64,000 nt of DNA, from NCBI GenBank assembly GCA_965285935.1, contig OZ260667.1:26536001-26600000 (forward strand), read 5' to 3'. Position numbers and translations under genes: made by a program. The notes beneath the pieces were generated by a model, which saw only the letters and a list, made by a program, of their open reading frames with translations, did no database searches and was not told the origin of the DNA. This DNA is from Ophelia neglecta (Eukaryota). Below are positions 37,708-64,000 of the stretch, piece by piece. Numbering within the stretch: position 1 is the first letter of the stretch; each line of letters begins with the position of its first letter.

Positions 37708-40700
37708 TCATTGTTGCTCACATCCACGCCTCATCGGCTGACGGACTCCGGCACTCCCAAGTTCTTCAATCTTGACCAATAAGCCGGTGAGTATAGTGAC
37801 ACCTCGCCGTTTGGTCGCCCACTCCAATTGGGAGTTTGGTATCTGAGGGTCCAGCTGAGTTTTGAGTCCTACCGTCTGGTCTCCTACGTCATAAGATCCG
37901 GGCTTTATGCGAACCTGGAACGCTACACGTGCTATATACGCTTTGGACGTTGTACTGTCTTCGTACCTGCAATGGAAAAATATACTGCTGTTTTTCAGCT
38001 TTGGACATGATTATTTTGATTGATTTGCATTGAAAATAAATCGCTCCATTGATCTTAGACCTTGACGCCAATGGTTATATGTTTATATGCGACTGAGCCG
38101 AGCGGGATGCAAGCGCCTGCGAACGTAGGTCACTCTATAGATACCATATATGTAGGTAAAAGAATGATATGCAAAAGAACACAATAAGAGTGCTAAATCG
38201 AAAGAGAATCCAATAGGGTATGCAAGTCAGTCACTACCGTTGGTTGTTGTGGCAGTCTCAGTAGCTTATATGGTAACATAGAACTACTAGGCCGTTCTTT
38301 TGTTATTGGGTGTTTTCCTTTCCAAGGTACGAAATGTGGCATTGATCGTTGGTGAATTTCGATTGTATTTTTCGAAATACTTTAAAGTGCAATTCACAGT
38401 TCAGAATATCCAATATACAATCAGATCTTCATCTTCAAAGAGAAATAAAAGGCGTTGTGCTCTAGTTTGTTTGTCACTGCACGAACTGTGCATGCTGAGA
38501 CGGGATCTGCTTCGGAAAGAGATTTGCTTTTTTTCGATTTATTATTCGATAGTCAAACTTAGAGAGTTACGTCATACTTTTTATGGCCCAAAATGAATAA
38601 TGTATACTGAGAAAGTCCGCCCAGTTAATACGAATGACTTCACTTGCATTCTCGCACAGTGCAAGTGTCACGTCGTTACGTGAATTTTGATGAAGTTGGT
38701 ACTATATCCCGGATCGTGAAATTTCCGTCAACGGTTAGGTCCGTTTCCGGTAAAGTCCGATATTTGAAAGACAAACCATCGCTCGCACACTAAACTATGT
38801 CTATATGTAACAGACGAGATTGATGATTGTAACCATATATATCAAATATGTCGCACTTAGCTGGCCGTGAATAGACATTACATCCTGCGTATCTGATGGA
38901 AGGAGACAAGTAGATTTTGTTGACATCATGTCCGGGTGGAGGTTTCATATCCGGATTGCTTGGATCATAGTGGTTGTCTGGAGGACGTAGTTCGTCGCCC
39001 TCTGGTGGCAAATCACCTGTGTAAACAAGGTTCCTACATCAATGATCGAAACGCGTATTCTTCGCTTACTCGCACACCAGACATCCCACAATAAAATCGG
39101 CGTCCAATTTGCCTGTAACGCTCTTCATGTACGTATAAAACCAATATTTAAGTTTTTGTAATCTAATTTCACAGGTAATAATAACTTTTTTGGGGAACAT
39201 ATTCAAGTAATTATAAAGGTTTCTTATTGTGCCAAAATTATATTAGATGTTCAATGACTTTGTTTAGTAATATACTTCTTTCTGACTAATGTTTCCGATC
39301 CTACAAACGAAAAAATATTTACCACTGACAGTGTTGATGGTTCCAACTGTCGATTAATGTATCTCACTTTAGAATTAACTACTATATTGCCTAACCTGGC
39401 ATTAACAGGTCTCCTGTATCCAGTATACTTTTCACACAATCGTGCCGTGTGCCGTGAAATGCCACGTGCCACATTTTAAACACATCCAGACTATCTGCTT
39501 TCGCGGGAGTCCTGCCAAAGTAAAAGAAAAAAAATAGGGCAGTGCTGATGAAAACTATCTGTTTTATTTATTTTTTTCTTTTATCTATTAATTGGTCTTC
39601 TCCACTTGTCTTACCTGAGACCAAACTTGTACCATCCTATCGGTACCCCGTAGATGGAGGTTGGCACCCCCCGTCTGTAGTACGGCTGGTCTCCACGGCG
39701 GCCATGACAGTTACTGCAGAAACACGTGTCATATGACTGATCAAAGTACTTGTCTGAAATTGATCATAAAAGATAAAACATTACAGTATTAATTTCAAAT
39801 TATGTAGGGAAAAAGCGTTAATCATTTATCAGTATACAAAAGGCCAGTTATACGTCAACAATTAAACTTAATGTCTAATTACCAACCTCCAAGACAAAAT
39901 CACTTATAAGAGAGATTTATAAGCACAAGCCTTGAGCACCGATCCCGATCCACTGCCTCATTTTACATAATTAATATATGTGTAGGTATATTTTATTACC
40001 TGAGAGCCCCAGACAATTCTTTAGCCGCTTACAGACGCCCTGAAAGCTACACTCCTGTTTTCCGCTGATAGCATTCGTTGGAGGAAAAAATTGTTTTGGT
40101 GCAGTGGCTGCAAAAAAAATACAAAGGTACCATATATATCGTTAAACCGCATTATTATATGAAGTTATCTTGCCTACAACTGTCATTTGAGTTGATTGAA
40201 TGAAGAAAAATCACATTTTTGGCTTTTCTTAGTCACTAATAAATGAAATGAGTAAAATAATTGTAATATGAAATAATAAATTACCTCTAGGTGTTCTCGG
40301 TGTCGCAGCGCTCTCTTCAACGGCCTCTTGTAGGGCCTTGGTGAACCACCAAAGAAGATCCTTTCGCTGGCCTTGCTCGTCTAAACAAATTAGCAAATAT
40401 GGTGAAAGCATACATTCTTTTAATGCCTTGTAATGATTCTTTACATTAATTTTATAATGAACACCTGGTCTGAACAGAATACTTTCGTTATCACGCCTGT
40501 CCATTAAAAAAAATCACAGACATTCCCTGCCCACGCGTTCTAAGAGCAACTATAGGTGATCATAATACCTGATTCTTCGTCTGAGTCGCTGCTGTCGTCT
40601 GACTGCCATGCAGTCGCTTTGGCCGTTGATTCGGACTGTTTTTGGCACTTAACTGTTGCTATGTGCAAGAAAATTGAAGTTAACCATAAATGCAGTAAAG

Positions 40701-43700
40701 GCTTTAAGAGATGCACATTTCAAACATCCATGATTTTGTGTGATTCCGAACTATGTTCTTTTTTGTATTACATTTCTCCAACTACTAAGAATTTGTTTAA
40801 ATTTCGCAACATTAACTAATCTGTTGTTGACTTAATTTATTTACCAGCTTGTTGCTGCACTGGGGCACATCGTTCCTGTTTCGTCCGCTCGGCTGATACT
40901 GCAAAAATATATATAAATACAGGGCGAGGTAGCACATTTTAGCGAATTGGTTTAAGATAGGGGAAACAATTTTGAGGAATAATACCTGTATAGTTGCAAT
41001 ATACTGTTAGTTCTGGCTCTATAAGATCTACCAAGATGAAGGGACCACAATGAACGATTTTTAGAGAGATTATTTTTGCACATGATTGAATGATTCTTTT
41101 AGTTTTATTCAAATATGTTTTTTAACATTTAATGAAATTAAGTAAATAGCGAAGAACATCACCAAAAAAACGTTATGGATTGGTGTTTATTGACAATTTT
41201 GAATAGTACCAGGTTAAAATGTAAGGACTTGTGAGTCCTAAAAAAACCTAAAAATTCTACCATGGCCCAGCACAAATAAATGCATCATGGACCCATGCTG
41301 GCATAAAAATAACAAACTCGAACTAATTATTTAATAACTTCAATCAGATACCTGATATAAAATTTGCAAACAACTAACCATTTTCTCTTGTAAATATGCT
41401 TATTTTCATAGCACATATATAGTTTTTGAGCGCGACAATTATTAATAAACCCAAAAAGGGTATTTCAAGACTTGCCTGCAGCTAAGAATGTTTTATCTTT
41501 ATTGTGTATCTTGGATTTCTTATTGGAATTCTGAGAGTAATCTACATGTATGTCACCAACGCACTTTTCATTTCACTTAGATCAGAGTATTTTGTAAACT
41601 TAATTAAAAGGAGAACGTGTAATCCGAGGCCCAAAATTGACCCTTTGGGAGCCCCATATAATTTTGTTTATTAACAAGTCCCCCACCCCCTAGTATACTC
41701 ATACACACAATCGGTCACATATTCATAAATTAAGACCAAATATTTGGTCTGCGGGATGTTTAAACCTGTATTTTTATATTTTCCATTGTCCTTTGGATCT
41801 TACCTTGTTTCCCGGTTACAGGCTTCTCTGTTGTGATTTTACAAATCTCGGACAAGATGCATTGCCAGCTTGCTTGCTGATCAAAATCTATTGTAACATC
41901 TCTCCCGTTAGGGCTGATCGCTGAGATTAACCAGCAAAATATTTATATTTCTTAAGTGCTTGCAGAATATTAGAATGTAAATCATCTAAAATATTTATAT
42001 TGGATTTAAGTAGCAACAAGTAAGTCAATTAACAGTTATCATTCATTACTTGTATATGCACTGTATTCTAGTCGATAAAATTATACTTCTAAATCTAGTA
42101 ACAAACGATAGTAAAAATGTGTTGAAGTTTATCATTAGATCAAATCGATGTTTAGCCATATTTTATTTAAGGTTTCAATTTTATTATATTCAGGTCATGC
42201 TTTAACCTTTTAGTTGTCCTACGCTAGTTTTGGTCACTTTACCCCAGCCGTATTTCGGTTTATCCACTTCCGGTCTGACACGAACTTTGTCTCCCACAAC
42301 AGTTATCTCCTCTGAGGATCAAATAACGCAAATGAACTTAAAACGGTTTTGTGTTAACGGCGAAAGCGTAAGCTGTTGCGAAAGCAACATTGATGACATA
42401 ATAATCTAAAATATCAGTAATTTTATAACCCAACCCTAACCCAGGCATCTCGATTTTGTTTTTGTTATAAATGGGTAAGGGTCAGGTTATTATTGTGTTC
42501 ATATGAGCTCAATTTTAGAGGCCATGTGGCTTTCGCCGAAGCCTTCGCTTTCGCCGTTAACACGAAGCCACTTAAAACCACTTATACAGACAACACATGT
42601 CATCAAAGGGTACAGTTAATATTCGACACGAGAACTAATTTATGCCATTAATCAAGCAAGGGCTAAGGTTTGAGGGTTCGTCGTGTACCTGGTTTTCCCG
42701 CTTGAACGGCGTGACTCCCTGGACAGACGATCCTGGCAAAACTATGTCTGTGGACATTTTTGTTAATGAAACACGTCTGACAGAGATCAAACTGTGAACA
42801 TTCGGCACACTTAAACCTTGACCCATGAAGCGGCAAGTCCTGGCAACCACAGCACCTGACATACAAGATGTATTGTTAAAACAAATATAATATCGATTTT
42901 TCTCAAGATGATTAAATAAACTCGGTCATTTATTAACCACAGTGAACCCACATAAAAAGTGCTATCACAGCTCAATTTAGTCACTTTACGCATTGATGTC
43001 GTGAACAATCTAAAGGTACAGTAAGTTTGTCAACGTTTTTAAGCACAAAAATATTTAACAAAGTGGAACAAACTACTTATTATGCTTTTAAAGCATCTAA
43101 TAACTGTGTGTGTACAATCATGTTATATGATACATTTGCACGTGTGTAGCAGTTGAGAAACTGTGATTCTAATGCATTTTTGACATTATGATAAATAGCA
43201 TTAACTTAACGCTATCTCAACGCATTTCCATGGTTATCTGCTCATAAATCGCGTGTGATTCATTCAAATCGCGTGGTAGAAGGAAGCGACTTTTGTGATT
43301 GGCGCAGCATTTACCAAACGCCGCAAAAGGAGTCTCTCCTGACCACGAAGTGCGAACTGCAGATCGCTTCTATCGGGACAACAAAACTAAATGTACCATG
43401 TTAAGCAATTAAAAATCGTCGGAACATGAACGCGAAATAAGTTTCAATGGTTATTATTCTTCGTTTGGTATTTCTATTTCAGGACAACTCTTGTCACATC
43501 CGGTTATTTAGGCCTATTCCTCGATATCAGTTATTCGTGGTTGAACGGTCCAGACGCTTATCGCAGCCAACTGTTTAGTTGTATTAAAGGTGAAATCGGG
43601 TAATTTCATGCATCGTTTAATAACAGTCGGCTAATTACGCGCAGGAAGTGGTATTGTGTCGAGCGGGAGTAGGTAAAATCCGCTCACAATGTGAATTCAA

Positions 43701-45254
43701 GCGATTTTCCGCATCGTTAACTTCGACAGGCTACTAACTGTGCGTAGGTAAGAATTGTTGATCGTATTGAGATGCAAATGATACAGGCAGTGGAGGGAAT
43801 TATGCAGGGTTGAGAAATAGTCCAAACTATCGCATGACTTGCAGTGGAAGTCGTGTGAACATCGCACTTGTGTTATAACGAATGCCTTGATAGTTCATGT
43901 TTCTAACCTACATTTATTATCCCTGGCAGATGACTACGATACTTAAGCCCAATTCAAATATCCTCGTTGTGCCTGATATAGTGCGTATAACAGTGTTGAC
44001 TCTTAATGTTGATCGAAAGTACTTTTCTCAGTTATAGAAGGCTTTCAACTTATGTGTCTAGGTCATGGATTACATATAATAAAGCACAGCTTGGGCTTTC
44101 AATTTAGCAGGACATGCATGAGCTCTATGTGCAAACTGTAAATTGTTATACTTCATATGATAGGAAACAAAGAATCTATAATTGGAACATTAACATCACG
44201 TAATCAAGAGAGTTTTATTGTCTTGATCAATCGGTTTTAGTGATATCTAAAGTATATGTTTTTGAGAAAACATACATGATTCCTGGATGGGTTTGCACTA
44301 CAGTCTCCAGTTCTGACAACAACCCCTTCCAGGCGTTCTGCTGTGGGTAATCAACAGTGACGGCATCTATAGTAGGATTTAATGCTGGAACGGAAAACTT
44401 AAATTAAAAATAGCTATATAGTCTTGCGTCAGATATATTTCTTGCCATGCCATTGGATATAATCTGGTCAATAGCAAGCTTAATACTACATGGTTATTAT
44501 TTTGCAAAGCTGAATGTAAAGGAAGGAAAATGCAATTTTAAGAATAAAAATATCAGCGAGAGGTTAAGTTACTATGATGAGCATCTCTTTTTTTAAAATC
44601 GACTGAAGTGTTAGACCTGCCTGTGACTATTCCTATACTGCGACGGTTGATATCACCCCAGCCGTATTTTGGTTTATCCACCGTTGATTTGACCTTGACC
44701 CAGTCACCGACCTTGATTTTTTTGACGTCCAGGACGCCGACGATCTCCACGTGCATAAAGGACACCCAGTACTTGTCTCCCTTGTGCTGCCAGTCGACCT
44801 GGACGTTAAGCTCGTGCAAATCACCTTTATCAAGCTGGAAAATGTCCACGAATTTGTTAATGTGTGCCATTAAATTCCGCCACTAACGTGGTAACATTAA
44901 TTTTTACAAGTCTAATATATGTACTTTTATGCCAAAATGTTTATAATAGACGAGCTGGTTGCCCTTCTATGTATTGTAACGGTTAACTCATAAAAATGGT
45001 CATCAGCGAAAAAAGGCAGCGAATGTCTATTGTAATTACAATATCAATTTAGGCCCAGCTAACACGAAATCAGTCCTAGTTAGTTCTAACATAGAGATGC
45101 TCACCCTCATAACTCTCCCACTATCCCCCACTTTGACCTCCTCGTATGTTCGGGAGCACAACACCGTCTGTCCTATCGCGATGTTATCTCGGACGTATAC
45201 GGCGTATATGTCATCGTTCGAGAAATCCGACCTCTTTCTGAACGAAACCGCCAT
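37708..45254 (-). CDS. Paralog A: CPH-SH3like-ZZ-SH3like-linker-NEURL4-type ADP-ribosyltransferase chimera, 14 coding exons, 627 aa
   Basis: Exons 45254-45105, 44834-44621, 44384-44276, 42855-42689, 42311-42207, 41920-41804, 40898-40845, 40658-40569, 40380-40285, 40107-40000, 39753-39615, 39511-39396, 39016-38857, 37966-37708 (1884 nt, open). N-part RKRSDFSNDDIYAVYVRDNI..LHELNVQVDWQHKG..YWV..HVEI..KVGDWVKVK..PKYGWG..HPGIMCCGC is HERC2-like. C-part CFCSNC..YGVPIGWYKFGL..WHVAFHGT..IYLSPSIRYAG..AFQVRIKPGSY..LEWATK..LLVKIE is NEURL4-ART-like. Confidence 0.9.
42345..42569. mobile_element. 225-bp Mutator(MULE)-like MITE in intron 4 of paralog A
   Basis: TIRs ggttttgtgttaacggcgaaagcg / cgctttcgccgttaacacgaagcc; 9-bp TSD acttaaaac at 42336-42344 and 42570-42578; internal taaccc/gggtaa-like subterminal repeats. 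Confidence 0.85.
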
Positions 45255-46079
45255 CTGTCATAGAATGAATTCTTAGAAGCGAAGCATAAGTAGACAGTAA
45301 AACGAACCAATTTGATCGTAAAATGATTAAATACTTATAATAATAAAAATATGAGGTATTTAATTACTATTAATATTCATAAACATCAACAAGATATAAA
45401 CACAAACGCAATTGTTAAAAAATGCTGATATACGCTCTCCTCTCAAATAACAAGAACAAATTTTCGTTGTTCAAGGACAACTTCAGACGGATATGACTTA
45501 ATCAAAACAAAAAGTGTTTTCAAGGTTAAACCAGGGAGCAGAGAATGTTCTGGTTTCTATCTCACAAATATTTGTGCATCATTTATACGGATTAGAATCG
45601 CAATGAAAAGAATAAGCTAACTATTATAATTTCACCTGTTTTGTCTTTCTTTTTTGTCTTAAGAAGATGAAATATTGTTTCTGTACTTCATCTGAATTTA
45701 TCAAAAACCACACGCTGTCAACCGACTGACACAATATATTCTACCTACCTCAATTATGATCTTCAAGTTTAACATAAAGGAACGCAGCATCAGTTTATAA
45801 TCAACCCTTTACATGAATACCTGAGCTGTCATATACCAACACTTTGAATCGCACAGTATTAATGCATGTAAACAAACTTTTATAGTCCCGTTTAAGGGAG
45901 AGCAAAGTACAACAAGTCAGACAATCATGTATTACAGAATTTATGCGACGGCCATTTTGAGTGGCGATATAATTATATATATATAAAATAACATGAAATA
46001 GATGCATGGCTGGCTAAGCCAGTTATGAAACTTGAAGTAGGAACAAAGATGAGCAATATTTGAAATTGTTTTGTTTTTA

Positions 46080-46113
<34 letters not shown>

Positions 46114-47002
46114 CCAGCCTCGATTTCAATAAATAAATATATATATATATATTGGGACAACCCCTTTGTTCGTACTAACTAAAATCACCAAACGGCTGGA
46201 GGCAGGGAGGCAAGGAGGCAGCCCTATACATAGCTGCCGCTGAAATATGTTTAAATTATAATCATTATCAACGGAATGGCGTCTTACCTCTTACCTTGTA
46301 CACTTGACTATTTAAGATTGCATTCGTTTCGGTTGTTATCAAGCATGTAAAACTGACGTTCAATATTCTTTCTTCTGATTATTCAAAGGGGCATTTGCCG
46401 CAGACGAACAGCGCATGCGTGCATATGAAATATTTCCCGAAAGTGGTGGAGGAACAACTAAGAACTATTTGTTCATTTGTTTTGTCATACTGGAATTTCC
46501 ATTCAATGAGCTGACAGGATTCCTGCTCAAACGTGTGTAATCAAGTGTATAACGTGACCATCGAAAAAGTGGTTAATGAGCCAGTGTTGTCCGTAGTTAT
46601 TTAAACGTTCTGCCCTGAATTATATCTTTAAGGTTATATGGTAGGCGACGGTTTGCAAGGAGTTAGGTTTCTATATACTGGATTTTTAAGCTGAGTTGAA
46701 GCACAAGAAGAAATAATTGCACCGCTGAGCAAAATGAGTGTTACTCAATAGAAGACGGACTGAGGACCAGCCTTCCACAAAGTAAATTTTTATGCACAAA
46801 ATTCGCTTATTCGTTTTAAGGATGCATCTATTTCATGTTATTTTATTAACATTAAATGCACTGCCACCCCATCGTTTAAGATTGTCCTATTTGATTAAAA
46901 TGACTGACATTCTCGATGACATTGAACTGACCATGGATTGTTATTAATTAATATTTCTGCTTTGCCAGGCAAGTATCTAACCTCTGATTTGAAACTGGAC
47001 AC

Positions 47003-49369
47003 TAGTCCAGTGCTTTTACGGTTTTGGCAGGAACAAATTGCAACAGAAGGTTTCTTGGTATTTTTGTAATCCTTAGGGTGTCCACAATCACCCAAAAAAA
47101 GTCCCAAGTGATAAAAATTCAATTAACAATTTTACGGCTATTAATGCATTTTACAGCTTTTAGGTCCAAAAAGGGTCGTTTCAAGGCAGATTTCTGTATT
47201 ATAATGTTTAATTTTTCTGTGTTGTCTGCTCATTTAAGCATGAATTGGCACAATGTGAAAAGTATATTGCAATGTATAACACGCACACATATTTTCTTTG
47301 AAATTACTAATAAAATAAATTAAATTATGTTCGCAACCGATAATTGGCGGATACTGTAGTTTTGTATGGATTGTGCTGGCGACTACCACCTCATCAATTT
47401 TGGCATTAACAGGATTACTAAGATATACCAAGGAATTTCCTTCTTATTGTGTATGTAGGAGTAGAAAGACACGATCTACGTGTATATACCCCTTATATTA
47501 ATGCCTAAATGTATTTCTATACATTTGTTATAATAGTTTGTGGGCAAAATGTGAATAAATTGACTAATACTGTTGCCCATTATTACTCTTTCATGTGGTG
47601 GTGGTGGTAGTTGATTGCAAGTGAAGTTGAATAGTATTAATATTGACTGTCATGGCAGACATTGAGCGTTGTGTATTCTGCATGCACTCAGTTGTAAGCA
47701 AATTGTATGAAAAGGGTTACGGTTCCATTAACCAGATCAGCATATCCCGAGGTTACTCCAAGTAACAGTTCCAGGGCAGTTGGTTCACTCAGATTGTCCT
47801 TGAAAATACTGCCGTCCAGCTCATACAACTTCAGCAGGTGGTACCAAGGACAAAATGAGTCAGTTCCTACAAGATTCGAACAAGGCACCATACAGTGAGA
47901 AATACATGAGAAGTAAATTGGCTGCGTTTTTTGGTAATAACATCATCAGGGAAAGCTTGAGAAGTCAAGTCTGTGAAACCATGATGTTCATACACGAAAT
48001 CAGTGGCTGTGATTCTACTTTAAGATTGGTTGGTATTCGATAAGGCACATCACTCAAGAAACTTTTAACTAACAAAGTTCTTTTGGAATGTAGTGATGTC
48101 CTCAGCGCTAAATCATCTGGAGCAAACTAGGTTGCCACAGCAGGAGAAAAAGTACTGCTGCTTTTATGATGGAAAAGCAGATGGCAATCTCAATAGATTG
48201 AGATACCAAAAGTTCTGTGAGAAAACAGCAGCAAAACAACTCAGCTCCATCAGGGAGTATTGCCGCCTACTTCAGCAGCTGGGAAATACCACAGCTTTAG
48301 GGCATATCTACAAGTTCAGGAGTGGAAGGGCTGTACTACTCTGAGGACCACTGACTGGGGATGGAAGATGGTCGGGGCACATTTGCTGCGAGTTGTAACA
48401 GATCAGCCAGCCGCACCTGATGTCTTGCTCCGAGTGACTGTGCCTGACTGCAGTGGGGATTGCAGTACTGCATGTTGTACATGGTTGTACATACAAGAAA
48501 AACAATCTGGAATGTTCATCTGCCTGCAACCAGCGTCACGGAACGTCTTGCAGCAATTTTACTGTTGTTGAAAATGAAAGTGACGATGATGGATTGAATG
48601 ATGGGTGTAGTTCATAAAATATGTCTCGCTTATCTGAACTTCAGTTTTATTTTCTTATCATCATACGTATCAGCTTTTTGATGTTCTGCATGTATCCATG
48701 ACAAGGATATGATTGGTGATCTCAATATCGAGTTTGTGCTATTTTTGTATTTGTGAAAATAAGTATAACTTTTCAGGTTATTTCAAAGAACGGTTAATAT
48801 TGAATTTCGACACCAACACAAACAAGCATTCATATATTAGATTTCTGAGCATTTTAGTGCAGGATAATATGGAAAACACAAACATGTTAAATTCTCCAAT
48901 TATAAGTTAATATTACGTGTCACTTATATAAACAACTGCTGGCCAATAAACCGGATATATATTGACTTCAGATTCCGTATTTAGATGATTGCTAATTGCA
49001 AATACATGTATCCCTACTACTGGAAACATAGTCAATCAAATAAATCAAATCAAATCTCAGTCTAATCAAATAAACCAAACATGACGAGTAGTTGACAAAT
49101 ATACCAACATATGTGGAATGGCTTAAGCCCGGGCCATCATTCGTTGTACAAAGTTCTACATGAAATTGAAAAAAATAGGTTTTTTCGACACGGATTGGCG
49201 ATATTGGGTACCGTCATATTTATGGCCATAAAAAAATATTCTGAATTTTTATTGCTCGGGACTTTTTTTTGTGATTAGGGACATGTTGCTGATTCCAAAA
49301 ATACCAAGAAAGCTTCTGTTGCAATTTGTTCCTATTTCGGCCCATTTTGGAGCTAAAAGCACTGGACTA
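47003..49369 (+). mobile_element. Internally deleted DNA transposon, about 140-bp imperfect TIRs (TA-GTCCAGTG...CACTGGAC-TA)
   Basis: Left end tagtccagtgctttta..aggaacaaattgcaacagaag.tttcttggtattttg matches the reverse complement of 49230-49369. TA at both outer ends. A decayed ORF lies inside. Confidence 0.85.
47652..48600 (+). pseudogene. Decayed transposon ORF: N-terminal CxxC..HxxC motif joined to a C-terminal 'H.ISGCD'/LPPT/WGW/Cys-rich (CXC-like) region
   Basis: Fragments MADIERCVFC..GQLVHSDC, MFIHEISGCDSTLRLVGI*, AGEKVLL, LRYQKFCEK, LPPTSAAGKYHSFRAYLQVQEWKG..DWGWK..PAAPD..CSGDCSTACC..CSSAC..SCSN, interrupted by stops and frameshifts. Confidence 0.75.
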
Positions 49370-50562: not shown

Positions 50563-53500
50563 ATGCCTTTTTTGATGAGAAAGGACTTCCCCTCCGACGA
50601 TGCCTATGCCAAGTATGTACGTGACAACATCGAAACTAACATGATGGTACTTTGTGTCAAAACGTACGAGCAAGTTCACCTGGCTGACTATGGAAAAATT
50701 ATAGAGGTGCCTTGTCCTTTCAATATGCCACTATTTTCCGGTTCAATAGGCCTATAGCCAGCTATAGCAAACTTCCCCAATAATGTATCAATGTGGCGCG
50801 GGGAGAAGCAACTTTTATTAAAATGAGTATCGATTCCTTAACAAAGCATATTATGAACACTTTGGGTGTACTGCTATGTTTGACAGTGTACTTTTAATCT
50901 CTGTACAGTTTTTAAACGTTGATACGTTGTTATAGCTCGACCAAGAGGATCCCCATGGCCTCAACGTACACGTTGACTGGCTTGGGAAGAAAGGCACCTA
51001 TTGGGTGAAGTACATTAATGTAGCACTTCTCGGCAAATACCCTTCGGATAATATAGGCGAAGGAGACTGGGTCAGGGTCAAACACAACGTGGTCGAACCA
51101 ACATTCAAATGGGGAAGTGTGAAAAGACGAAGCATTGGAATAGTAACAGGTAGATAGTGTAATGTGAGGGAAGTTTTTATGAGACAATAAAAAAGAAGTC
51201 TGAATAAATGATGCTATTAATATAATTAAGCATATGGTAATCTTTGTAAATTTGATAAATATTATATACCACTTAGCGCCGCTTATTGCATATGTTTTAT
51301 TTTAAGCAAAATCAGACGATAGTTCAGTGATAACAGTTGATTTTCCCGAACAGTCCAATTGGAAGGGGCGTCGCGATGAGATGGAAGAAATCCCGAAATT
51401 ACATCCTGGTGTTATGTAATTATATTGTAATACAAAAATAGAATTGCATATATTAAAAGAAAGGGCTTATTGTGAATTACAAATCTATCACTCACAATGT
51501 AGTCGGCGAATATGGTCAAGTACATTTTCTTTTGGCATAGAAAAATTAAATTTGTTTTTATTGGAAAACTGAAATGTTATGACTGCAAATGTGTATATGT
51601 GTTTGTTTTACATTACAGATGTCGTGGTTGCAAATCTTTTCCATTGAAAGGCTCTCGATACAAATGCTCCGAGTGTGACGATTTTGACTTCTGCCAAGTT
51701 TGCTTTCAGAAGAACACTGGCCACAAACACAAGTTTAAGAGAATCATTTGCCCTGGAGGCACCCCCGTTGATACTGATTCATCAGGCAAGATGATGTTGA
51801 ATTGCTCCGAACAGAAGTGTGGCCCATCCTAGAAATGCATAGTTATGACTATTAGTTTGCTGATTTCTGAGGCAGAAGAACTCTTTTTAACGTTAAGAAC
51901 ATCCGGACGGAAAGGAACACTTGAACAGTCATTTTCTGTTTATATACAGGCATATAAGACAGTTTAAACCGTAGTTTTTAATATTGTAACCATATTTAAT
52001 TCCTTTCTATCTTTTACCATAACATAGGTTCTAACATAAGTGTTGGCGACTATGTCCGCGTGAAAGCGAGTGTCAAAGCTCCCAAATATGGATGGGGAAA
52101 GATTGAAATCAAGGATCGACGCAGTATCGGACGGGTCGAAGGTATTATTTTCAATCGTCATTGGGTGGGGAAAAGAGAGCAATCTTTTTAAAAGCAAGTT
52201 TATATTTATAAAAAAAAACCTTTTTATTGTTCATTGTGGATTTTAATCCCTGATGATACTGATCTGGTAGAAAAAAAATACACATTTTATTTGTTTTTCT
52301 ATGCCAGTTATATGTGCCGATGGCAAGGACCTTCAGGTCAATTTCCGAAAGCAAAAAGGCTGGAATGGTGTTATATCCGAGATGGAGAATGTCGATGTTG
52401 TCCATCTCTCTATCAGGTGAAAAAAAATATTATTATCATTAACCAACTGTGTCAAGCCTTCCCCTAAGTTATCCTAATTAGACTAAATAGGCCAGTGGAA
52501 AAATGCATTCAAACTGTTAATTCACAAGAATCTGTTCAAAGAAAATGTCGTTAAGATGTATGCTACCTACCAACAAATAACCTGTAAAGAAAATTTTACG
52601 ATTGTTGGTCTGACCTTTTATTTTCACCATATTGTGAGATCTGGTACTAACAATTTGATAAGTTAATCTGCTTTCATAACATATTTACCTGTAGATGTGA
52701 TGGGTGTAAGCTTTGCCCGGTAGGTGGAATTCGGTACAAATGTAAGGAATGCGATGACTTTGACTTCTGTCAGGAATGCTTCATAATTATAGACAACCAC
52801 AAACATGACTTCATGAAAATAACAAAGCCCGGGGACAGGCCCCAGATGGCGGGAAAACCTCGTAAGCAGCTAATTTGCATACAAATCCGAATATCTACGT
52901 ATAAACGCCACTGTGCTGTTATAATACTGCATTATATCTAACAGCAGTTACACTTTCTGTTCATAATTTTATGATTGCTTCCAGCAAATGCCATCAAAGT
53001 AGAAATGTCAGATACAGACTCTGATACCGACTCTGATTATTCTACAGTTGGTAATGGATCTGTCTTTTATTTTTTGTCAATATTGCCGTTGCGCTAACTA
53101 ATCGAAATATATTTTATTTTTGTTTCGAGGTATTTCACTGAGAAACTAGTATTATTTTCATATGTCAGAGCTCCTCCTTGCTGCCAAGGCCAATTCCATA
53201 GATCGTGAATGGTGGAAGTTACTCGCAAAAGCCATTGGATCTGATGATTCCGAAGATGAACGTAAGAAAGAAAGTAATGACTCAACATACTTAATCCTTC
53301 CAATGCTATATTTATGAGAAGCTGTATCATTATACATGCTAAAGTTACCCATATGTTTAAATGGAATAGACATGTGACCAATTCAATTAAGCGAATGTCA
53401 AATTCAAATATACTTGTTTGATACGAATTTATACAAATTCGAATTAATTTCTTGTTGCAAATAAGAAAATGAATCCAACATGTGTGTCAAAACTTTCATA

Positions 53501-54350
53501 CATGGGAGCATTCATGCAAAAGGGTTGAATTGTACAACAGTGGCTTAATTAGATAAAGAGCATCGAAGAATCACAATGTTTATCAATTCACCATCAAAAT
53601 TGCTGATTTGCTACAGTGAGTAAGGCTGCCTAAGGGCATATATGACGCTCGTACCATAAGGATTCTATTAGTGATAAAAAAATATCATTTTAATTGAATG
53701 TCAACAGGCAGTGGGATATAAAGCATAAGTGTCCCTTTTGCTCGCATTTATTCTCTAGACGCGACCTATATTCCCATTTAAAGTGTAATGAGAGGCAATT
53801 TAAGGTTGAAACAAACATGATTCTTATTCTTTGATATTAATATAGGTTTTAATTTGCAACGGGGCCAAGTTGCCATCAGAGACAATTTAGCACAACCCCC
53901 TCGGGCCAGTTAAAGGTCAATGATGCCTAAGATTCAATCACTTTTGCTGCATTTCAGAAAAAAAAACAGAATATCCTTAGACATCATATACTATATTGCA
54001 CCCCATTATTCAATATGTACACGATACTTGAATTTCAAACATACCTATAAAGCAGTTCTTATTTGTCAAAACAAACGAATTGACTTTTGCATCATTTTAA
54101 CTTATTAATCACTGGCTACAGAAAAGACTGCTTTGGTGGGCAGCTCTCGCAACGAAGAACCTAAAAACGAAGGAGGGGAAGGAATCTGTGCGTACCAAAG
54201 TCTCTGCAGGCGCTACAAGGATAGTCTCTCTCTTGATGGTATGATATGCACTAAATACAATGATTATTATTATTATTTGTATTATAATTATGTTTTATTT
54301 GTATAATAATAATAATAGTAATAATTATAATATTTGTAATAATAACCATT

Positions 54351-54394
<44 letters not shown>

Positions 54395-56215
54395 AAATAA
54401 ATGATGAATCAAAATTACACCTTCAATGTGATTGTTTTCCAAAAAGAAAACTTATTTGAGGTGGCGGCAGACCAGTGTTTTTGCCAAGGATGCCATGAAA
54501 AACGTGGGGACAATCTCTATTATACCAGAGGAGTACCTCCAAAGAATTATGGTTTGCCTATTGGTTGGTGTAAATTTGGACTGAGGTAGGATTCAGCTTT
54601 AGACTTTACACATCAATCTAGAATGAATACTTCAAATAATGATTTTTATTTTCAACATTAAATGCTAATTTGAAACAATTTAAATAAGGCAGAATGCCCA
54701 AAATAATACAATGATCGAAGTAAACGATATGGTGTTCATACATATTACATTGCATGTTCTGATATGTAGTTCATACGGCAATTGTGACCAACAAAAGTTT
54801 CAATTAAATGGTACAGTCTTTAAATACTTTCGGGCTAATGATGAAACAATGTCATTTATTCATTTTACCTATTGTAAAAACGTTGTCTGCATAAATAGCA
54901 ACTTTGTGGCCACCAGAGTTAAAACTTATTGCCATATCATGATAAATATCTTGGGTGGTGTTGGGGGTGGGGGTGAAATGTTAAATGTTTGGCATGTTTT
55001 GGGTTTACCATTAAAGATATATACTTAACTGAAACCATGAAAAATAAGCTTGGAGGGAAACCCTATCTAATGTACCTTATGCCAGTGACCCTCCTATAGA
55101 ATTGGGTTATCTTTTCTAGAACTCCAGCTAGAGCTCAGAGTTTAAAAGCCTTCCAGCTGTGGCACATGGCATTTCATGGTACAAAACCAGAATGCATCGA
55201 GAAGATCCTTCACACAGGGGACCTCCTAATGCCAGGTATGTCGAAAGTGTCCGGATTAGTGTAGTTGCGACCAATCTTACGAACAAATTATTTAAGAAAC
55301 AAAAGAGAGACAGACAGACAGGCAGACAGACACAGAGGGAAAGAGACCGAGAAAGCTACGCTGAACATATTTTAAAACAAACGTACCAATAATTAATCAC
55401 AAAAGAAGGCGAAAATAACAAATACAAAAAGAAATCGATAAAACATGTGGAAAGACAATTAAATGTAATCCTAAAAATAAAATGGAAAAAGAAAAAGGAA
55501 ATAAATAATATAAAAGTGGACGAAAGACTATACTTTGATGGAATTATATTGTCTTTCTCAAATTAATAGGCGACGAAACGATGGAAGGTGGTCCAATTCG
55601 TCCCCCACCAAACCACTGGGACCCGGAGAACCCTGACATGATGCCCCCTCCTTGTCACGACGTAAAAAAGATATATCTTTCCCCATCGATCAAATATTCC
55701 GGGTGTGGTGTTTATGCCCCTACGAAAAGGTATACATATATATAAAGTTCATTCCTGTTAGGTAATTGTTTTACTGGAAAATAGACTTTTCTTAATGTAC
55801 TATCACTGGTAAATTTTCAGATTACAACTTGTTATAAAATAGCGGTCACAGTATGGAATGACAATAAGAATGGAGGCTGTTTGCCTCGAATGATGGTATT
55901 CAATAAAAAAAAAACCGTGGTATATTATTGGAGTATCAATTATTTTGCTACTAGCTTCGAGGACTTCGATCAACTTCTAAGACGTACGACGCTCGTGTAG
56001 TCTTGCAAGTCCGCATCAAACCAGATGCATACCAAGTAGGCCCAGAAACAATTGGTGCCACATCCGAAATGGATCCCAAATTTCCTAACTCGGAGCTCGA
56101 GTGGTCAACCAAAGTCCGAGGAGGAATAATTCTCACTGGCCTCCTAGTCAAGGTCGAGGGCTTTTCCAGTATTAAGGGAGTCACACACCGACATCCGAGA
56201 CTTCCCCAGGACTGA
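50563..56215 (+). CDS. Paralog B: CPH-SH3like-ZZ-SH3like-ZZ-linker-NEURL4-type ART chimera; apparent frameshift in last exon (586 aa as read, about 657 aa if corrected)
   Basis: Exons 50563-50706, 50936-51149, 51307-51415, 51619-51785, 52028-52141, 52308-52416, 52695-52861, 52985-53050, 53169-53261, 54122-54238, 54447-54585, 55120-55235, 55570-55729, 55955-56215. Exon sizes 214/109/167/139/116/160 equal those of paralog A. The phase-2 splice into the last exon meets TAG at 55998-56000, while the conserved QVRIKP..ELEW..LLVKVE continues in another frame. Confidence 0.85.
54352..54392. repeat. (TA)n microsatellite in an intron of paralog B
   Basis: About 20 TA units, read directly. Confidence 0.9.
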
Positions 56216-59200
56216 CCGTACCACTGTGTACCACCATTTGTATTTAAGTTTTACATTTATGGAATGAATATTGTAAATATAATCAACTGATAACAAAGGG
56301 GAAAGATTAAGCAGTCTGTGCAATACAAAAAAGAGCTATCACCAGTAACATTTGCACTATATTTATGCTATTAGTTTAGTATATTCAAAAGGTATTCAGG
56401 TATTATATGCCATATCTATACAACTTTCCTGTATGTTCTCTTTATTTTTCACATTATTCCGGAGCACATTTCCGTGTTTATGTAGTTCAAGGTTGTTTAT
56501 ATATATATACTATTTTTTTTTAATTCAGAAAGCATTATGCTCTCTGTTACAATATGGGAAATGAAAATACAGAAAAGAATATGAATACATGAATAATATA
56601 GGTTCTCTATTGGTCAGACAAATAACAGGCGAAAAATGGCTTTTTTATTATGTTCCCTCCGTCGTTTAATTATTTATATAACTCTTAAGTGTAGGGGCCA
56701 GTACCGTTTTAGCAGTTCTCGGCAGCGCACGCGTCTGTCTTAATGTGGTCAACCTTTTTATTTCAAAGTAAGAAAGTGCCCCGCACGTCACAGGATTTTA
56801 ATTTTATGCCTTTTTTTTAACGAATTTCCCTTCCAAAATGACGTTTAATGCCCCCCCCCCCCTGCCTCACCCATCGAAGAACATGCTGAAGAAAACCTAG
56901 TGTCTTGTTTTACCCAATCAGTGACGTCAGGGACACCTGGTCTATTGCAACTTCTCAAAATAAGTAGGCCAACAAACGGGTACTTCTTGACAATGTAAAT
57001 GGTGCCAACTTTAATTTATTTTGTAAGCAGTCAATTAATTCATTTATTTCTTATTGTCTTATATTAATATGTTTGAACGAAATAAGTTAGCATTAGAAAT
57101 GTGGTAACATGATTCTTACTGGGCTAGGGGCTAGGAAATTAACAATTACATTAGGTTGATAACATTTCTCATCATCTCTGACGAACACCGAAAGTGGTGT
57201 TATCACATATGGTTTAGTGTATATAACTGAATTATAATTTGTAAACATATTTTTATTACATTTTATAGTTATCATGCTGACATTAATTTACATAAGATTT
57301 GTTTTATTTTTGACTAAGTGCTATACTGTCCAATCTGTAGATTTTATGCAGATAGAACAATGCTGTGTGCTATTTCTTATATACACAATAAAAAAAATAT
57401 GATAAACCTAATAAAATAACATCAAACAAACAAATAGATTGTGTTACTGTATTATGCTAACATTTAAATGTCTCAAACAACACCTTAGTCAAACTGTGGA
57501 ACAATTCTAACCGTACTAGATATCTAAATTGTGGCATATACAGGAAAAGTTTATTTATAACCTACGAAAACTAATGATATAATCGTAAACTTAACATGAA
57601 TACGCGACAAGCAAACTCAAGAGTTTTGGCATGCAGATATCTACAATATTTCTAAATTTTCTACGTATAAAGATTTTAGATTTGGTCTCCAACCGGAATT
57701 TCTGTTTCTGATATCAATGAGCCTTAATATTCAGGTGTTTTAACCATAGTTTAGATATTGAGACTCTGCTTTCGAATGTCAGTGGATAATTTTGTAATCA
57801 TTGTTGAAAATGGAAAAATCTTTGTTGAACATGAGTAGGGCATAAGTTTATGCTTTTCTTTCCCGTGCATCAAGACATAATATGCGTATTAATTCTTGTA
57901 GACTATAATTGTGTTAAGCCTACATGTTATGTCGTAACGCAAAAGTAACACTGTAGATTATTTTAATCACATTTAAATAATCTGATCGATTTTATACACT
58001 TATAAGTAAGTATACGCTGGGGTCGTCTGCAGTTAGTAAATTGCTTTTGTCCTGAGAACTATGCCTTTAGTATCTTCTTGATATTGACTTAGCACTTCAT
58101 TAGTGATTTATTGCAGGTAAACAATATCTAATAACCACAAGCTCTCCGTCCGATAGGTACTCATAAATAAATAATTTCATGAGAAGGAAATATAAGTGAC
58201 TCGATTGTATCGCGTTCCAAATCGTATATTTTCTTTCATTTCCTACCTAAAAATGAAAATAATATACATAAGGAATCCAATCTCCATACCACGTTACACA
58301 CATGTGCTGAAATGCGCCAAGACGTAAATATGCTGGCATTCCTTTGTTTGCCGCTATTTCTTTTCATCTTTTCATTGCTGCTCTTCTCTTGGTTTGCCGA
58401 GTACCAGTTTTATAGTATACTTAAAACTGGGGGAAATGAAAGATCTTTGCTTTGGTCTGACACGGATCTGTGTACTTAAAGTACCTACTGTGCGCGCATT
58501 GTTTAAGTTATTTCTGTATATGCATGGCAGCTAGCTGCGACACTTGAGCCACTTGTTCAAGGCATGCGCTTGTCAAACATTTCCCTACCCTTCGCAGCAG
58601 AGGCTAATTCTTATCACATAGCTTCTCCGCATTACCATGCTACAGGCGAAGATAACGGAGCTGTGTACTCTACTACGAAGGGAAACATTTCCCGAAAACG
58701 GTGCAGATTAAACGGCGAGATATCGGAATAGGGAACAATTGAAATTACACGATAAAAGGAACAGATATAAGTCACAAGATATAAGTCACGGCCGAACTTA
58801 GTTTAAGTGGTTTGAAGCAGCAAAGTTGTTTATGTTTAGCCTACTCGGTACATTTATAGCAAACAGCAACACAGGTTAAACAAGGATCACGCATATGTAA
58901 TACTTGGAGTATTTGTGCTCAAGTCATTTAACCATGTTTAAACGTTTGGCAGACCGGTTTGATAAACAAATCTATCATTTTAAATAAGAAGAGCACCGGA
59001 ATATCTTCTTTACAAAAGGTGAGTTCACAAATACTTAAATACATGGTATGGATGTCATCATTTATTTTAAACTCCAAACAATCGTCATATTATATTCACA
59101 TGACAAGTACACGTCACCGGATCACTGTTATAAACGTCTATCCCGACCCTTATAAAGTCGATCTGTTTAATTGTTTAGCCTAATTGGTAACGGGATAATT

Positions 59201-62200
59201 TACACAGTGGTCTTTAAACACGCCGTAATCTGTATTAAGACCCAATACTTCCTACGGCAGAGACGTATTTGACGGGTTTTAATAATTTTAAGAAGGGCAC
59301 AATGTGTTTTTAGACTGCCTGTCCAATTCCGGATTGCGCAAATTAATGATTATCAATATGATCAGTCTATAACGACTTTGGTCTTATATTTGTTGTGTAC
59401 GCTAATGTACATGCATGTGTATAGAATATCAATACCTTACATGTGAGCAAAGATGCCCTAGCTTCTACAGAAACGTGTCTTGCCCTTGGTGTGAACAATG
59501 TAGCCGGAAGTTGCTGCGTCCCGTTGACGGAGAGATGTGACCAACAATCCGTGACATGCGGAATCGTAGTGAATCAAAATATGAAAAATATCAAAATAAG
59601 CACTATGATTTTGGCAAGCATTGTGGCTCATAAGCAATATATTTAGCCATTTGTAAACATGGCCGTCTTAGATTTGTTTTTTTCATTGAGTGGGCCTGCC
59701 TAAAAGACACTTCTTTCATAATAACTGTAGGCCTACCATTTGATCCAAATTTCAACCAAGTATGAGTGCTTATTAGGCGTGTTATTCCAGTTGAAACGAT
59801 ATTTAAGGTGAAATATATATATACCATTAAAGCCCTGCCGTATTATCAGATTGCCCATAGTGCTGAAAATTTACTAAATTGCTGTTTATTCTAATAAATA
59901 AATTATTGAAATGTAAAGCTGCGTGCGGTCTATTGATTATGTCAGTATATTTCATTTTCTTTATATGGCAGACCAATTATAATATTTCAATTTCAAAATA
60001 GTATAAGACTATAGAACGAATGATACTAGACAACTTCGCCGTGAGGACTTAGATAAGACTTAACTTTAAAAAATACTCGTCAAGAACGAGCACATGACTT
60101 ATTTATTCGTTAAACAAAACATCACTTGATCTTTAATATTTGCATTAGGTCAGAACAAATGATGTAGGCAACAATCAATCAATTTATGACAAACTTAAGG
60201 TAGCTGGTTGAGAATGCTAACTTATATCAGAGGCTAGGAACTTCCACTTTAAGACGAAGCTGACCTCGGTTCTTTACTGAATTTCGCTCTAAATCCAAAT
60301 TCATCAACTTAAATATTCGCCATGTAAATATGTCATTTCAGATTTGAATATAATTGTCAGAGTGTTTCAACCAGGCTAATGGCCACAACTACATTGAAGC
60401 AACACTTGAAAGCTTGACTTTGGCAACTTTGTTCTTAATTCCAATAACTTGCATTGCAAAGCTAATAATTATTATAAGACGATTTTTCCCTAATCTAATG
60501 CATTCAGAAACACACTGGGAACCCTGTCAGATGATTATGACTATTGAAAATAACACCAGCCTAACCTCGAGTAAGTTGAGACATTTTCACAAATAATTCA
60601 AGTTCCACATAAAAGAATACATGAATATACCCAGAGTATATACCTATACACGTTAATTCAACTTCCTGAATGTTTAATCTCATTTTTATTGACCGAGCTT
60701 GTCTAAGTACATTCACAAACACTTACTAACCCACTCAAAAACTTTGCAATGGGATGATAAATAGGCAATAAGATTGTCTTATCATACTCACTCGAGGCCA
60801 CGAATGGACTGTATAATTATCTGTTTCTGATTGTTAGTTTACATTCGCTACTTTACCCGGGAATATTGGAGTGGAAATGGAAAATAAATGAAATTTATAT
60901 AAATTGTCTGTTAAAATCGACATCACATGGTCAATACAATGAATGGAATGAAACATAGTTGAGTAACCAACCAAAAAGTCATTTTCTAACTATTAATAAG
61001 TAATTACGTTTTATATTTTGTTCATTTCAAACAGTTGTCGATTCTACGCCAGGCTTCCTCGTTGTTAATTTTTTTTAGATAACAAGTTGATATCTTTAGT
61101 CTTGATTATTGTAGTTCCAGATGGAACTAGTTTCTGTTTTATTAAATAAGCAGTGAATTGATAACCATCATTTCAGTATACTTTGTTCTGCGGTCTAAAA
61201 ATTAGATCGCATTTTCAATATACCGCGCCTTTCGGTATTTGCAAACACCGAGTTCCTAATTAAGCATTTCATTGTAACGCTATCAAACATTTTACATAGA
61301 CTAAGACTATCACTGAATGAATTGAATAAATGGAATATTGGTTTAAATCTGCTACATGATACTAAACTACAATATTAAAAATTTACAATACCAAATGAAG
61401 CTGGTCATCACATGTTATATCTGTTCTACTAAAATCCAAAAATTAAAATTCAATAGATGTGCACCGTTTAACAAGACAAGGATAATCGCTTCAAACAAAT
61501 ACAACAATGAGAAAAATGGTAAAAAATGATGAAATCAAACAGGAGAAAAAGCGAAACTACGGAAAAATATTATGTGTCAATCAGATTAACCTCAAGGGTT
61601 GACTTAAAAAGTGAAAACTAAGACTGATTTACTATCCATCACAGTCGAAAGTTATTAAACAGCTTGACACATGGTACCTGATGTATTCCGGCATAATATT
61701 TTATCTAACAACTGTAACAAATACATTATTAGGCTGTTAAGTATAAGGGTTATGGGTGCTATCGATTATTTAGCAAATGTACCATTAACAAGGTATTAAG
61801 CGCTTTGAATGTTTCATAACAAATAGCATAATTTTACAGCTATAAGTGCAATTAATAGTAACTGCTAGCTTAATAAGTAAAATGAGCAGTACGGTCTCTT
61901 TGTTTGGACAAAGGTATTGAAGAAAATATTGCTCTTTTTCCTGATTAACAAAAGATGCAAGATCGAGTAGCTATCTAAGCTGAACCATGTACCTCAATAC
62001 GATAAGTAAAATTAGGACAAACAAAACATTAAACATTGATATCAAACTGGCCTGACTAAACAAACGTCAATTCGTTCAAATGTATCAATGTCCCTTGATG
62101 TTCTGCTTTAAAATAAAGAGCATGTTAATGACAATATGCAATCGATCATTACTAGTAATTTGGAGTCAACATAAAATGCAATCCCTTCACCTCCGATTAT

Positions 62201-62420
62201 GATAATGCTACAATTATAGGGAAGCCATTCTCGTTCGGAACTTAATTATTTATGTTTTTTCACATCAAATACGTACAAACACATTCAGTACGGTATTCTA
62301 ATGCGTCCAAGCACATTTAGTACAATATTCTAGTGCCAAACCTTCCAGGGATTCGCCTGCAAGGAACATTCTCTGATGAAGCTTAAGATTAAATTGTTTA
62401 ACACGTGCTGTTCTATTTAG

Positions 62421-64000
62421 ATGGCGTCCAGTATGACGAGGTCAGACGTTTCCTCTGATGAGGTCTACGCCAACTACGTCCGTTACAACATCAAAACTGA
62501 TATGCTGGTCGTATGTGTAAGACGTTTCAAGATTATTGAAGAGGCTGACTATGGCAAAATAATTGAGGTATGAAAATATGTTTCTCTTCTCACTGTCATT
62601 CCTGTTTTGTCGTAAAAATGTTCCAATATCGGAAGGAGTTTACACCAACCAGATATATCAATAAAGCTTGACAAATCCTACATTTCAACCTTGGTAACAA
62701 CAGTCAACAGGATCATTTACTTCTAATTTGGAGGAGTGGGGGTGGGGGGTAGTAAAATACCTACTCAGTTAAGATTGCCTGCTATACGTTAGACCACTTT
62801 TATATTGGTTATTCCCAAAGATCAACGAAGAAGACCTGCGGGGCCTCACCGTCCTGGTGGATTGGATTGGGGTGAAAGTTCCCTTCTGGGTTAAGTACGT
62901 AAACGTGGCACCGCTCGGGTTCTTCCCCTCAGAGAAGATAGGTGTGGGAGACTGGGTACGCGTGAAACGCAACGTCGTGGAGCCAACATACAAGTGGGGA
63001 AATGTGAACAGACAGAGCATTGGGATAGTTACAGGTACATGTTTAGTGTATTCCACTCGTGATAAAGTCTGCACTTCAAGATTGAAGTAACCATGATATA
63101 AAGCTATTATATAAATTAAAGGTGTTCCTATTCATTCAGAATTGTCAGTGCTGTCCCTTTAGCCATTGTATGTGAGAGATTTATTATTCAGCTAAGGCAG
63201 ACGATGGGTCTCTGATAACAGTGAATTTCCAAGAGGACTCCACGTGGAAGGGCCGGCGCGACGAAATGGAGTCAATTCCGTCTTTGCATCCCTGTGTGAC
63301 GTAAGCTTTTTACAAATATAAAAATAATTACAACTTCTTCACCTTCATGCCTTAAATACACTGATTAGTTAATCTTCAGGGCGGCGCAGGCCCATTAAAA
63401 AGAGAAATTAACCTGGAAATTCATCGGAAAGAAAATGTACTAAAAGATTTGTTTCGGCGAGGTAAATGAGGACGTACACGTATATTTTTTTGCTTCATGT
63501 TAAATAATTAAAACTAGTATACCACTTATTTGTTATAAGCAAATCAAAATATCGTCATCGTTACCGGCATCTCTTGGAGTGTATACATTGTAAAATGTCC
63601 GGAGATATTGTTAGTAAAAATGTGAAATTATTGTAGTAATCTACGCAAGCATGTGAAATCTACTACATTGTATTTATGCCTTCAAGTGTATGCCTTTAAA
63701 ACGCATACAGTTGTGTTTGGTGAATGTGATCATTTGATAGAGTTCTAGTGCAATGCTAATTTCTTGGTGCTTTATAATATTGATGATATCTCTTTATTCA
63801 GTGAGGCTGGTATGTGATTTGTACATATCTTTGAATATTGGTGTACACATAAGTTTCACATTAACCAATATATTGCCAAAACTTAAAAGGAAATTAAAAC
63901 TATATTTTACCAGTGGTAGGTTCAAGATGTATCACATTTGACCGTTGCAGGTGTGACGGCTGTAAATCTGCTCCACTTAAAGGATCGCGATTCACGTGCT
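62421..64000 (+). CDS. Paralog C (truncated by window end): CPH-SH3like-start of ZZ
   Basis: Exons 62421-62567, 62821-63034, 63192-63300, 63951->64000, with the same phases and the same 214/109 sizes as A and B. Most similar to B ([26 protein letters not shown]). No ART exon is visible inside the window. Confidence 0.85.

Follow-up and report, generated by a model that had tools for sequence, protein, structure and literature searches.

In this study, we analyzed a 64,000-nucleotide (nt) stretch of DNA from Ophelia neglecta (GenBank assembly GCA_965285935.1, contig OZ260667.1, positions 26,536,001 to 26,600,000 of the forward strand), hereafter called the window. It consists of intron-rich animal DNA of mostly 31–46% GC and holds three paralogous genes, A (− strand, 45254..37708), B (+ strand, 50563..56215) and C (+ strand, 62421..>64000). 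In the predicted products of A and B, a reader cassette of the HERC2 type is followed by an ADP-ribosyltransferase (ART) domain of the NEURL4 type. To judge from their sequences, we give about an even chance to the reading that these genes form a family of ARTs targeted to HERC2 clients and evolving by birth and death.

Gene models of the three paralogs

The exons of A, B and C were assembled by hand from three-frame translations, and the junctions were predicted from sequence. The model of A comprises 14 exons and 625 amino acids (aa) and is open throughout, with canonical or GC-AG intron ends, while the model of B, also with 14 exons, yields 586 aa up to a premature stop. Exon 4 of C is cut by the window end. 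Exon 2 (214 nt) and exon 3 (109 nt) have the same size in all three genes, the ZZ exon has 167 nt in A and B (cut in C), and ART exons of 139, 116 and 160 nt occur in A and B alike, in each case with equal phases. GC donors are required for intron 2 of A and intron 4 of B. The least supported parts of the models are the linker exons E7–E8 of A and E8 of B, as no homolog match was obtained for the linker. The original prediction of three diverged paralogs, with A and B head-to-head, was confirmed: the exon sizes and phases match, the identities over domain codons are 54% (A–B), 65% (B–C) and 41% (A–C), and 5.3 kb lie between the ATGs of A and B.

The ATGs of A, B and C each directly follow an acceptor AG, and therefore upstream non-coding exons are likely for all three genes. 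On the minus strand, strong donors at 46288 and 46295 (within 46288-46420) are candidates for a first exon of A, and an NRF1-like element, GCGCATGCG, near 46411 is a candidate promoter element of this gene.

Three sequencing runs, all from one sample, were also used. A contig of one of them (X1) extends 1,940 nt beyond its match to C, so that the extension past position 64000 proposed earlier could be made. In this contig, ZZ1 of C continues in register, and a second ZZ exon of C, matching ZZ2 of B, was found 1,312 nt further on; the contig ends 378 nt after it, ahead of the expected position of the ART exons.

HERC2-type readers and NEURL4-type ART

A Pfam scan of 26 exon pieces detected Cul7 (CPH) and ZZ, with SH3_15 as a weak match. 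HERC2 was the best PDB match for every reader piece tested (9L8Y for CPH and SH3/INBD, 6WW3 for ZZ). These matches bear out the domain orders proposed from the letters, namely CPH-SH3-ZZ-SH3 in A and CPH-SH3-ZZ-SH3-ZZ in B, and the cassette of CPH, INBD/SH3 and ZZ known from HERC2 is thus present. RLD, DOC and HECT are absent from the 625-aa and 586-aa models, which are fully assigned to other parts. For the exon after ZZ2 no HERC2 match was found, and the linker exon with the WW motif has no demonstrable HERC2 origin.

According to an excerpt of PMC12318192, residues 2540-2700 of HERC2 bind NCOA4 via CPH and the SH3-like INBD, and an excerpt of PMC6944118 describes binding of p53 by CPH and activity of the isolated HERC2 CPH fragment in cells. 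In alignments to the PDB entries, A and B retain the equivalents of HERC2 D2598, L2605 and W2619, and C has N at D2598. K2655, Y2656, W2658, G2659 and Q2686 are found again in the second SH3 of both A and B, where K2677 is replaced by R in A and unchanged in B; fewer of these residues are present in the first SH3s. In the ZZ finger of HERC2, exchange D2709A or D2730A abolishes binding of Arg and H3 peptides (PMC9001736, excerpt). The corresponding pocket D2709/D2728/D2730 reads C/Q/D in A, R/D/D in ZZ1 of B and D/D/D in ZZ2 of B, and for ZZ1 of C only the first D is visible within the window. Therefore, the reader variation concerns pocket chemistry as well as module number.

The two SH3 repeats of A are identical at 26 of 27 nt (44655-44681 versus 42241-42267, − strand) over the VDKPKYGWG loop, which is the NCOA4-contact loop in HERC2, while their proteins are 44% identical. 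Intragenic gene conversion between them is possible.

In the ART half, the first motif HG[S/T], named for the NEURL4 ART in PMC8932523, is HGT in A and B, with H present in 55 of 58 homologs. The motif S-P-S/T-x-x-Y reads YLSPSIRY in A and YLSPSIKY in B (Y in all 58 homologs), and the ELEW motif is found in frame in A as QLEW, with the invariant second E kept. The ARTs of A and B are sisters in the tree (99/94), next to canonical NEURL4. Also, the introns of the ART half lie at NEURL4 positions, and phase 2 at the last junction is ancestral according to the NEURL4 loci. As the NEURL4 introns were kept, the fusion would have occurred at the DNA level. Neuralized (NHR) had no match in the 26 exon pieces, and the N-terminus is accounted for by the HERC2 domains; macrodomains were not detected in the Pfam scan, and the linker exons outside the scan (18–39 aa) are too short for one. 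A 94-aa exon product on a 32-kb contig (P0010), 67% identical to the last exon of A and carrying QLEW and KRRGVT, is possibly derived from an ortholog of the fusion.

Several searches for the fusion elsewhere were negative. No CPH-bearing protein, and neither PF11515 nor PF18346, was found among 53 longer ART homologs (only 8,000 candidates scored), no Cul7 was found in 39 proteins of at least 200 aa among 150 matches listed of 381, the CPH profile did not match in 219 proteins or 26 loci, and in a metagenome scan with the CPH exon 0 of 590 stretches were confirmed. Word searches with single exons gave few candidates (1/26 and 7/17, the latter being plant KEG-type SH3 repeats), and the ESM Atlas provided generic SH3-like leads only. 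A HERC2-NEURL4 fusion was not found in the literature searched, where excerpts of PMC3417536 and PMC7955679 mention NEURL4 briefly; earlier publications on the NEURL4 family may list its architectures. As far as these limited searches go, each part on its own is known, and joining a HERC2 cassette to a NEURL4-type ART appears to be new.

Frameshift in gene B and selection on the fusion genes

A frameshift in the last exon of B had escaped the original prediction. When the orthologous phase-2 junction 55729/55955 is used, a stop at 55998-56000 follows after 14 more residues, because the beginning of exon 14 contains, on balance, 2 nt too many, and the product lacks ELEW together with the final strands of the ART. 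The site is spanned without an indel by contigs from each of the three runs, two of them carrying letters of the other haplotype nearby. The pieces over 55341-56127 contain 0, 0 and 1 gaps, the single one at the intronic position 55904, and 6 and 12 substitutions in two of them. An assembly slip is therefore an unlikely cause. The runs represent one sample, and a residual chance remains that the frameshift is heterozygous in this individual. Rescue of the frame by splicing was considered and rejected: any combination of sites that keeps the frame either depends on weak ones or removes conserved motifs, and the one strong alternative donor (55661) restores the frame and deletes YLSPSIKY. The out-of-frame part of the exon is as conserved as the upstream ART exons (nonsynonymous differences per site between A and B, pN, 0.23 versus 0.22), and the break is therefore recent. 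As predicted from its gene model, B in the sampled individual cannot encode a whole ART fold.

The truncation lies in the last exon and leaves all readers intact, as would be expected if the proteins mainly occupied HERC2 clients and shielded them from ubiquitylation, with a secondary role of the ART whose loss B could hence tolerate. A truncation in the last exon would probably escape nonsense-mediated decay. Action of the HERC2 CPH fragment alone in cells (excerpt of PMC6944118) fits such a competitor or scaffold. Between A and B, however, conservation is highest in the ART core, which points to long selection on the catalytic domain, and we consider a mainly occupying role very unlikely compared with an ART targeted to HERC2 clients.

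Over 468 domain codons of A and B, synonymous differences per site (pS) are saturated at 0.84 and pN is 0.30. For B and C (139 codons), nonsynonymous (dN) and synonymous (dS) rates are 0.22 and 1.22, respectively, giving a ratio of 0.18. By domain, pN between A and B is lowest for the ART core (0.22–0.23), followed by ZZ1 (0.27) and by CPH and SH3 (0.33–0.38), and pN/pS of all domains ranges from 0.21 to 0.57 with saturated synonymous sites. Thus, of the pattern suggested beforehand, a lower divergence of the ART core than of CPH and SH3 was found, while no domain came near a dN/dS of 1. Among the haplotype differences over 44200-45750, 19 listed (20 in the contig), one is coding; it is synonymous and lies within the first three exons of A. 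As coding bases make up 30% of this region, coding differences are depleted (P 0.009; 0.03 if the unlisted difference were coding). By these sequence measures, purifying selection on the fusion genes is clear. The earlier notion of an old fusion kept under selection and then amplified agrees with these values and with the sister position of the two ARTs. Neutral relics in place of B and C had been named earlier as a finding that would speak against this notion. For B the objection applies by half: its history is not that of a neutral relic, but in this individual a whole ART fold cannot be encoded.

These data also bear on whether a working fusion exists at all. The HERC2-like and NEURL4-like exons might be independent or decaying pieces that underwent duplication as a unit, as could be argued from the linker exons without homologs, from the broken state of B and from the GC donor of B, read-through of which would end a short CPH-SH3-ZZ product. 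Against this, all 14 exons of A are open, and their ends are canonical or GC-AG. Although synonymous sites are saturated, exon order and phases agree between A and B, the ART part lacks a separate start exon, and the only listed coding haplotype difference in the first three exons of A is synonymous. We therefore regard co-duplicated fragments as highly improbable and keep to a functional family of client-targeted ARTs.

The second SH3s of A and B share a new acceptor as their starting point and form a group (71), and the first SH3s of B and C group at 100. Therefore, the SH3-ZZ duplication would precede the A/B split, with the B/C split occurring later. The end of exon 6 in A is shifted 8 nt downstream, into phase 1, which would permit an in-frame loss of ZZ2; a search for a ZZ2 relic in A (41803-40381) gave nothing above shuffled sequences.

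The features of the window are listed in Table 1. For the transposon between A and B, read depth is several-fold above that of the genes, and a join 47000->49370 that skips it occurs in all three runs; this insertion may be polymorphic.

Table 1. Exons of the fusion genes, other features of the window and NEURL4-type ART fusions of other animals
Feature	Position	Strand	Remarks
A exon 1	45105..45254	-	CPH N-half, ATG right after acceptor AG; Pfam Cul7 E 9.5e-13
A exons 2-3	44834-44621, 44384-44276	-	CPH C-half and SH3/INBD-1, intron 2 GC-AG; HERC2 9L8Y E 6.7e-20, 0.004
A exon 4	42689..42855	-	ZZ finger, pocket C/Q/D; Pfam ZZ, 6WW3 alignment
A exons 5-6	42311-42207, 41920-41804	-	Second SH3/INBD; E6 117 nt, phase 1 (B: 109 nt, phase 2)
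A exons 7-10	40000..40898	-	Phase-1 linkers (E7-E8 predicted only), acidic stretch, WW motif, Cys-rich pre-ART start
A exons 11-14	39753-39615, 39511-39396, 39016-38857, 37966-37708	-	NEURL4-type ART, HGT/YLSPSIRY/QLEW intact; weak donor 38857
DNA transposon, degenerate, multi-copy	47002..49369		Lies between A and B, outside both genes; terminal inverted repeats flanked by TA
B exons 1-4	50563-50706, 50936-51149, 51307-51415, 51619-51785	+	CPH, SH3/INBD-1, ZZ1 (R/D/D); intron 4 GC-AG
B exons 5-7	52028-52141, 52308-52416, 52695-52861	+	SH3/INBD-2, ZZ2 (pocket D/D/D, intact)
B exons 8-10	52985..54238	+	Phase-1 linkers, Cys-rich pre-ART start
B exons 11-13	54447..55729	+	139/116/160 nt; ART N-half with HGT, YLSPSIKY
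B exon 14	55955..56215	+	Net 2-nt frameshift within 55955-55970, TAG 55998-56000; ELEW C-half out of frame
C exons 1-4	62421-62567, 62821-63034, 63192-63300, 63951->64000	+	CPH, SH3/INBD-1, ZZ1 start
Very high-copy short repeat	58586-58684		Upstream of C; bin depth 8,000-21,000
Direct repeat, 202 nt	14273-14474, 14775-14976		100% identical; recent duplication or assembly artefact
KCTD-type gene	20285-20959	+	Single open reading frame; Pfam BTB_2 E 1e-18
IRS/DOK-like adaptor exons	9337-11261	-	Pfam IRS PTB E 1e-6 on 9340-9636
CD225/IFITM-like open reading frame	3066-3629	-	E 1e-4, below cut-off
Open reading frames, unassigned	24628-25293, 32004-32693, 35621-35903		Hydrophobic stretches
ART fusions P0193, P0106, P0138, P0192, P0181, P0153			PARP14-type RRMs (Lamellibrachia); GT4-conflict, LRR-ZU5 (amphioxus); kinase-TPR-NHR, NHR-ZZ (Xenia); SH2-ARM (Ptychodera)

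Proposed function and comparison with known systems

In the preferred reading, a partial HERC2 copy would have been joined to a partial NEURL4 copy at the DNA level through phase-1 linker exons, followed by tandem duplication of SH3-ZZ. After the A/B split, A would have lost ZZ2, probably aided by the displacement of the donor by 8 nt, which changed its phase from 2 to 1; the B/C split and lastly the recent frameshift in B would have followed. CPH and INBD would bind clients of the HERC2 type (p53-family tetramers, NCOA4-like proteins), intact ZZ pockets would bind N-terminal Arg or histone H3 tails, and the ART would modify the client, or proteins next to it, with the use of NAD+. Thereby, the pairing of HERC2 with NEURL4 would be fixed within one protein that lacks the ubiquitin ligase, with ADP-ribosylation replacing ubiquitylation. 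Of the two, A would have the enzyme activity, although its ZZ is dulled, and B would be either a shortened reader without catalysis or a newly arisen null.

Several points weigh against this reading. The only ZZ of A lacks D2709 and D2728, its ART has Q at the first E of E-L-E-W (E in 51 of 58 homologs), and the ARTD/PARP-like fold was found for a homolog and would apply to A by analogy. Two junctions are of the GC-AG type, the donor of A at 38857 has the lowest score of 29, and the single fused transcript is a prediction of the gene models. What is proposed for binding and activity is taken over from human proteins, and fitting p53 and NCOA4 partners are assumed to exist in this animal. Finally, repeated duplication, reader change and copy loss fit a role in defence at least as well as housekeeping.

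Such a role could be that of an integrated-decoy guard, in which the HERC2 cassette serves as bait for pathogen proteins attacking HERC2 or its clients, and engagement would turn the ART into an effector of immunity or cell death; differences in the number of readers and in their pockets would widen the bait range, and A and B would form a head-to-head pair. In marine invertebrates (amphioxus, hemichordate, coral, tubeworm), NEURL4-type ARTs are found behind many sensor-type modules, namely LRR, LRR-ZU5, GT4-conflict, kinase-TPR-NHR, SH2-ARM, NHR-ZZ and PARP14-type RRM modules (Table 1), and many NEURL4-like ART copies lie on one 50.6-Mb sequence of Ptychodera. These ARTs thus appear as mobile effector domains, a pattern typical of defence genes and not found described in the literature searched. 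The faster divergence of the reader domains relative to the ART core is in line with a guard, as are copies that duplicate and break as PARP14 and PARP15 do (excerpt of PMC4038475) and the likewise head-to-head PARP9-DTX3L (excerpt of bioRxiv 10.64898/2026.04.23.720386). On the other hand, positive selection cannot be shown because of synonymous saturation, kB, ISRE and GAS motifs were not enriched between A and B in a crude motif count, and the conservation of the distal exon of B indicates a recent dead state and not an old division into sensor and executor. Overall, the guard is a tentative alternative, which we place behind the client-targeted ART. Still less probable is a complete animal integrated-decoy system with HERC2 bait cassette and NEURL4-type ART effector, amplified into paralogs that differ in their bait pockets, in which A (live enzyme, blunted ZZ) and B (full reader, dead enzyme) would act as executor and sensor like paired plant NLRs. 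If true, it would at the same time be a case in which nature has fused the genes of two known binding partners.

There has been little experimental work on the ART activity of NEURL4, a member of the HERC2-NEURL4-p53 complex. A natural fusion of HERC2 cassette and ART under selection suggests that the NEURL4 enzyme acts on HERC2 clients, and A provides a compact 625-aa protein for testing this.

NEURL4 itself consists of six NHR domains and a C-terminal ART, for which activity was reported (PMC8932523). The fusion genes resemble it in the Cys-rich pre-ART segment, the HG[S/T], SPSxxY and xLEW motifs, the intron positions and the placement in the tree. Unlike NEURL4, they carry the HERC2 cassette instead of NHR, exist in several copies, one of which (B) is broken, and contain a short RPP..H..P insert common to the fusion genes and P0066. 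With HERC2 (~2550-2755; 9L8Y/9L93, 6WW3/6WW4), they share the domain order and most NCOA4-contact residues, but they are devoid of RLD, DOC and HECT, SH3(-ZZ) is duplicated, the acidic ZZ pocket is degraded in A and in ZZ1 of B, and the output would be an ART and not a ubiquitin ligase. The sole other described CPH carriers, CUL7 and CUL9 (PARC), probably acquired this domain from HERC2; unlike the fusion genes, they are ubiquitin-ligase scaffolds without SH3-ZZ repeat or ART. CUL9 is itself a gene fusion (PMC3940038, excerpt). The NEURL4-like ART fusions of other invertebrates (SPRY-NHR-ARM, LRR-ZU5, GT4-conflict, kinase-TPR, RRM) belong to the same ART family and show changeable sensors and local expansion, although none of them carries CPH or SH3_15 and they lie on other branches of the tree. 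The proposed likeness to PARP9/14/15 holds as an analogy only. The fusion genes belong to a different ART family, the NEURL4 type, without macrodomains and without enrichment of immune motifs in the A–B spacer; they have in common with PARP9/14/15 the ARTD fold, a variable number of readers, duplication and loss (three paralogs, one frameshifted) and head-to-head pairing.

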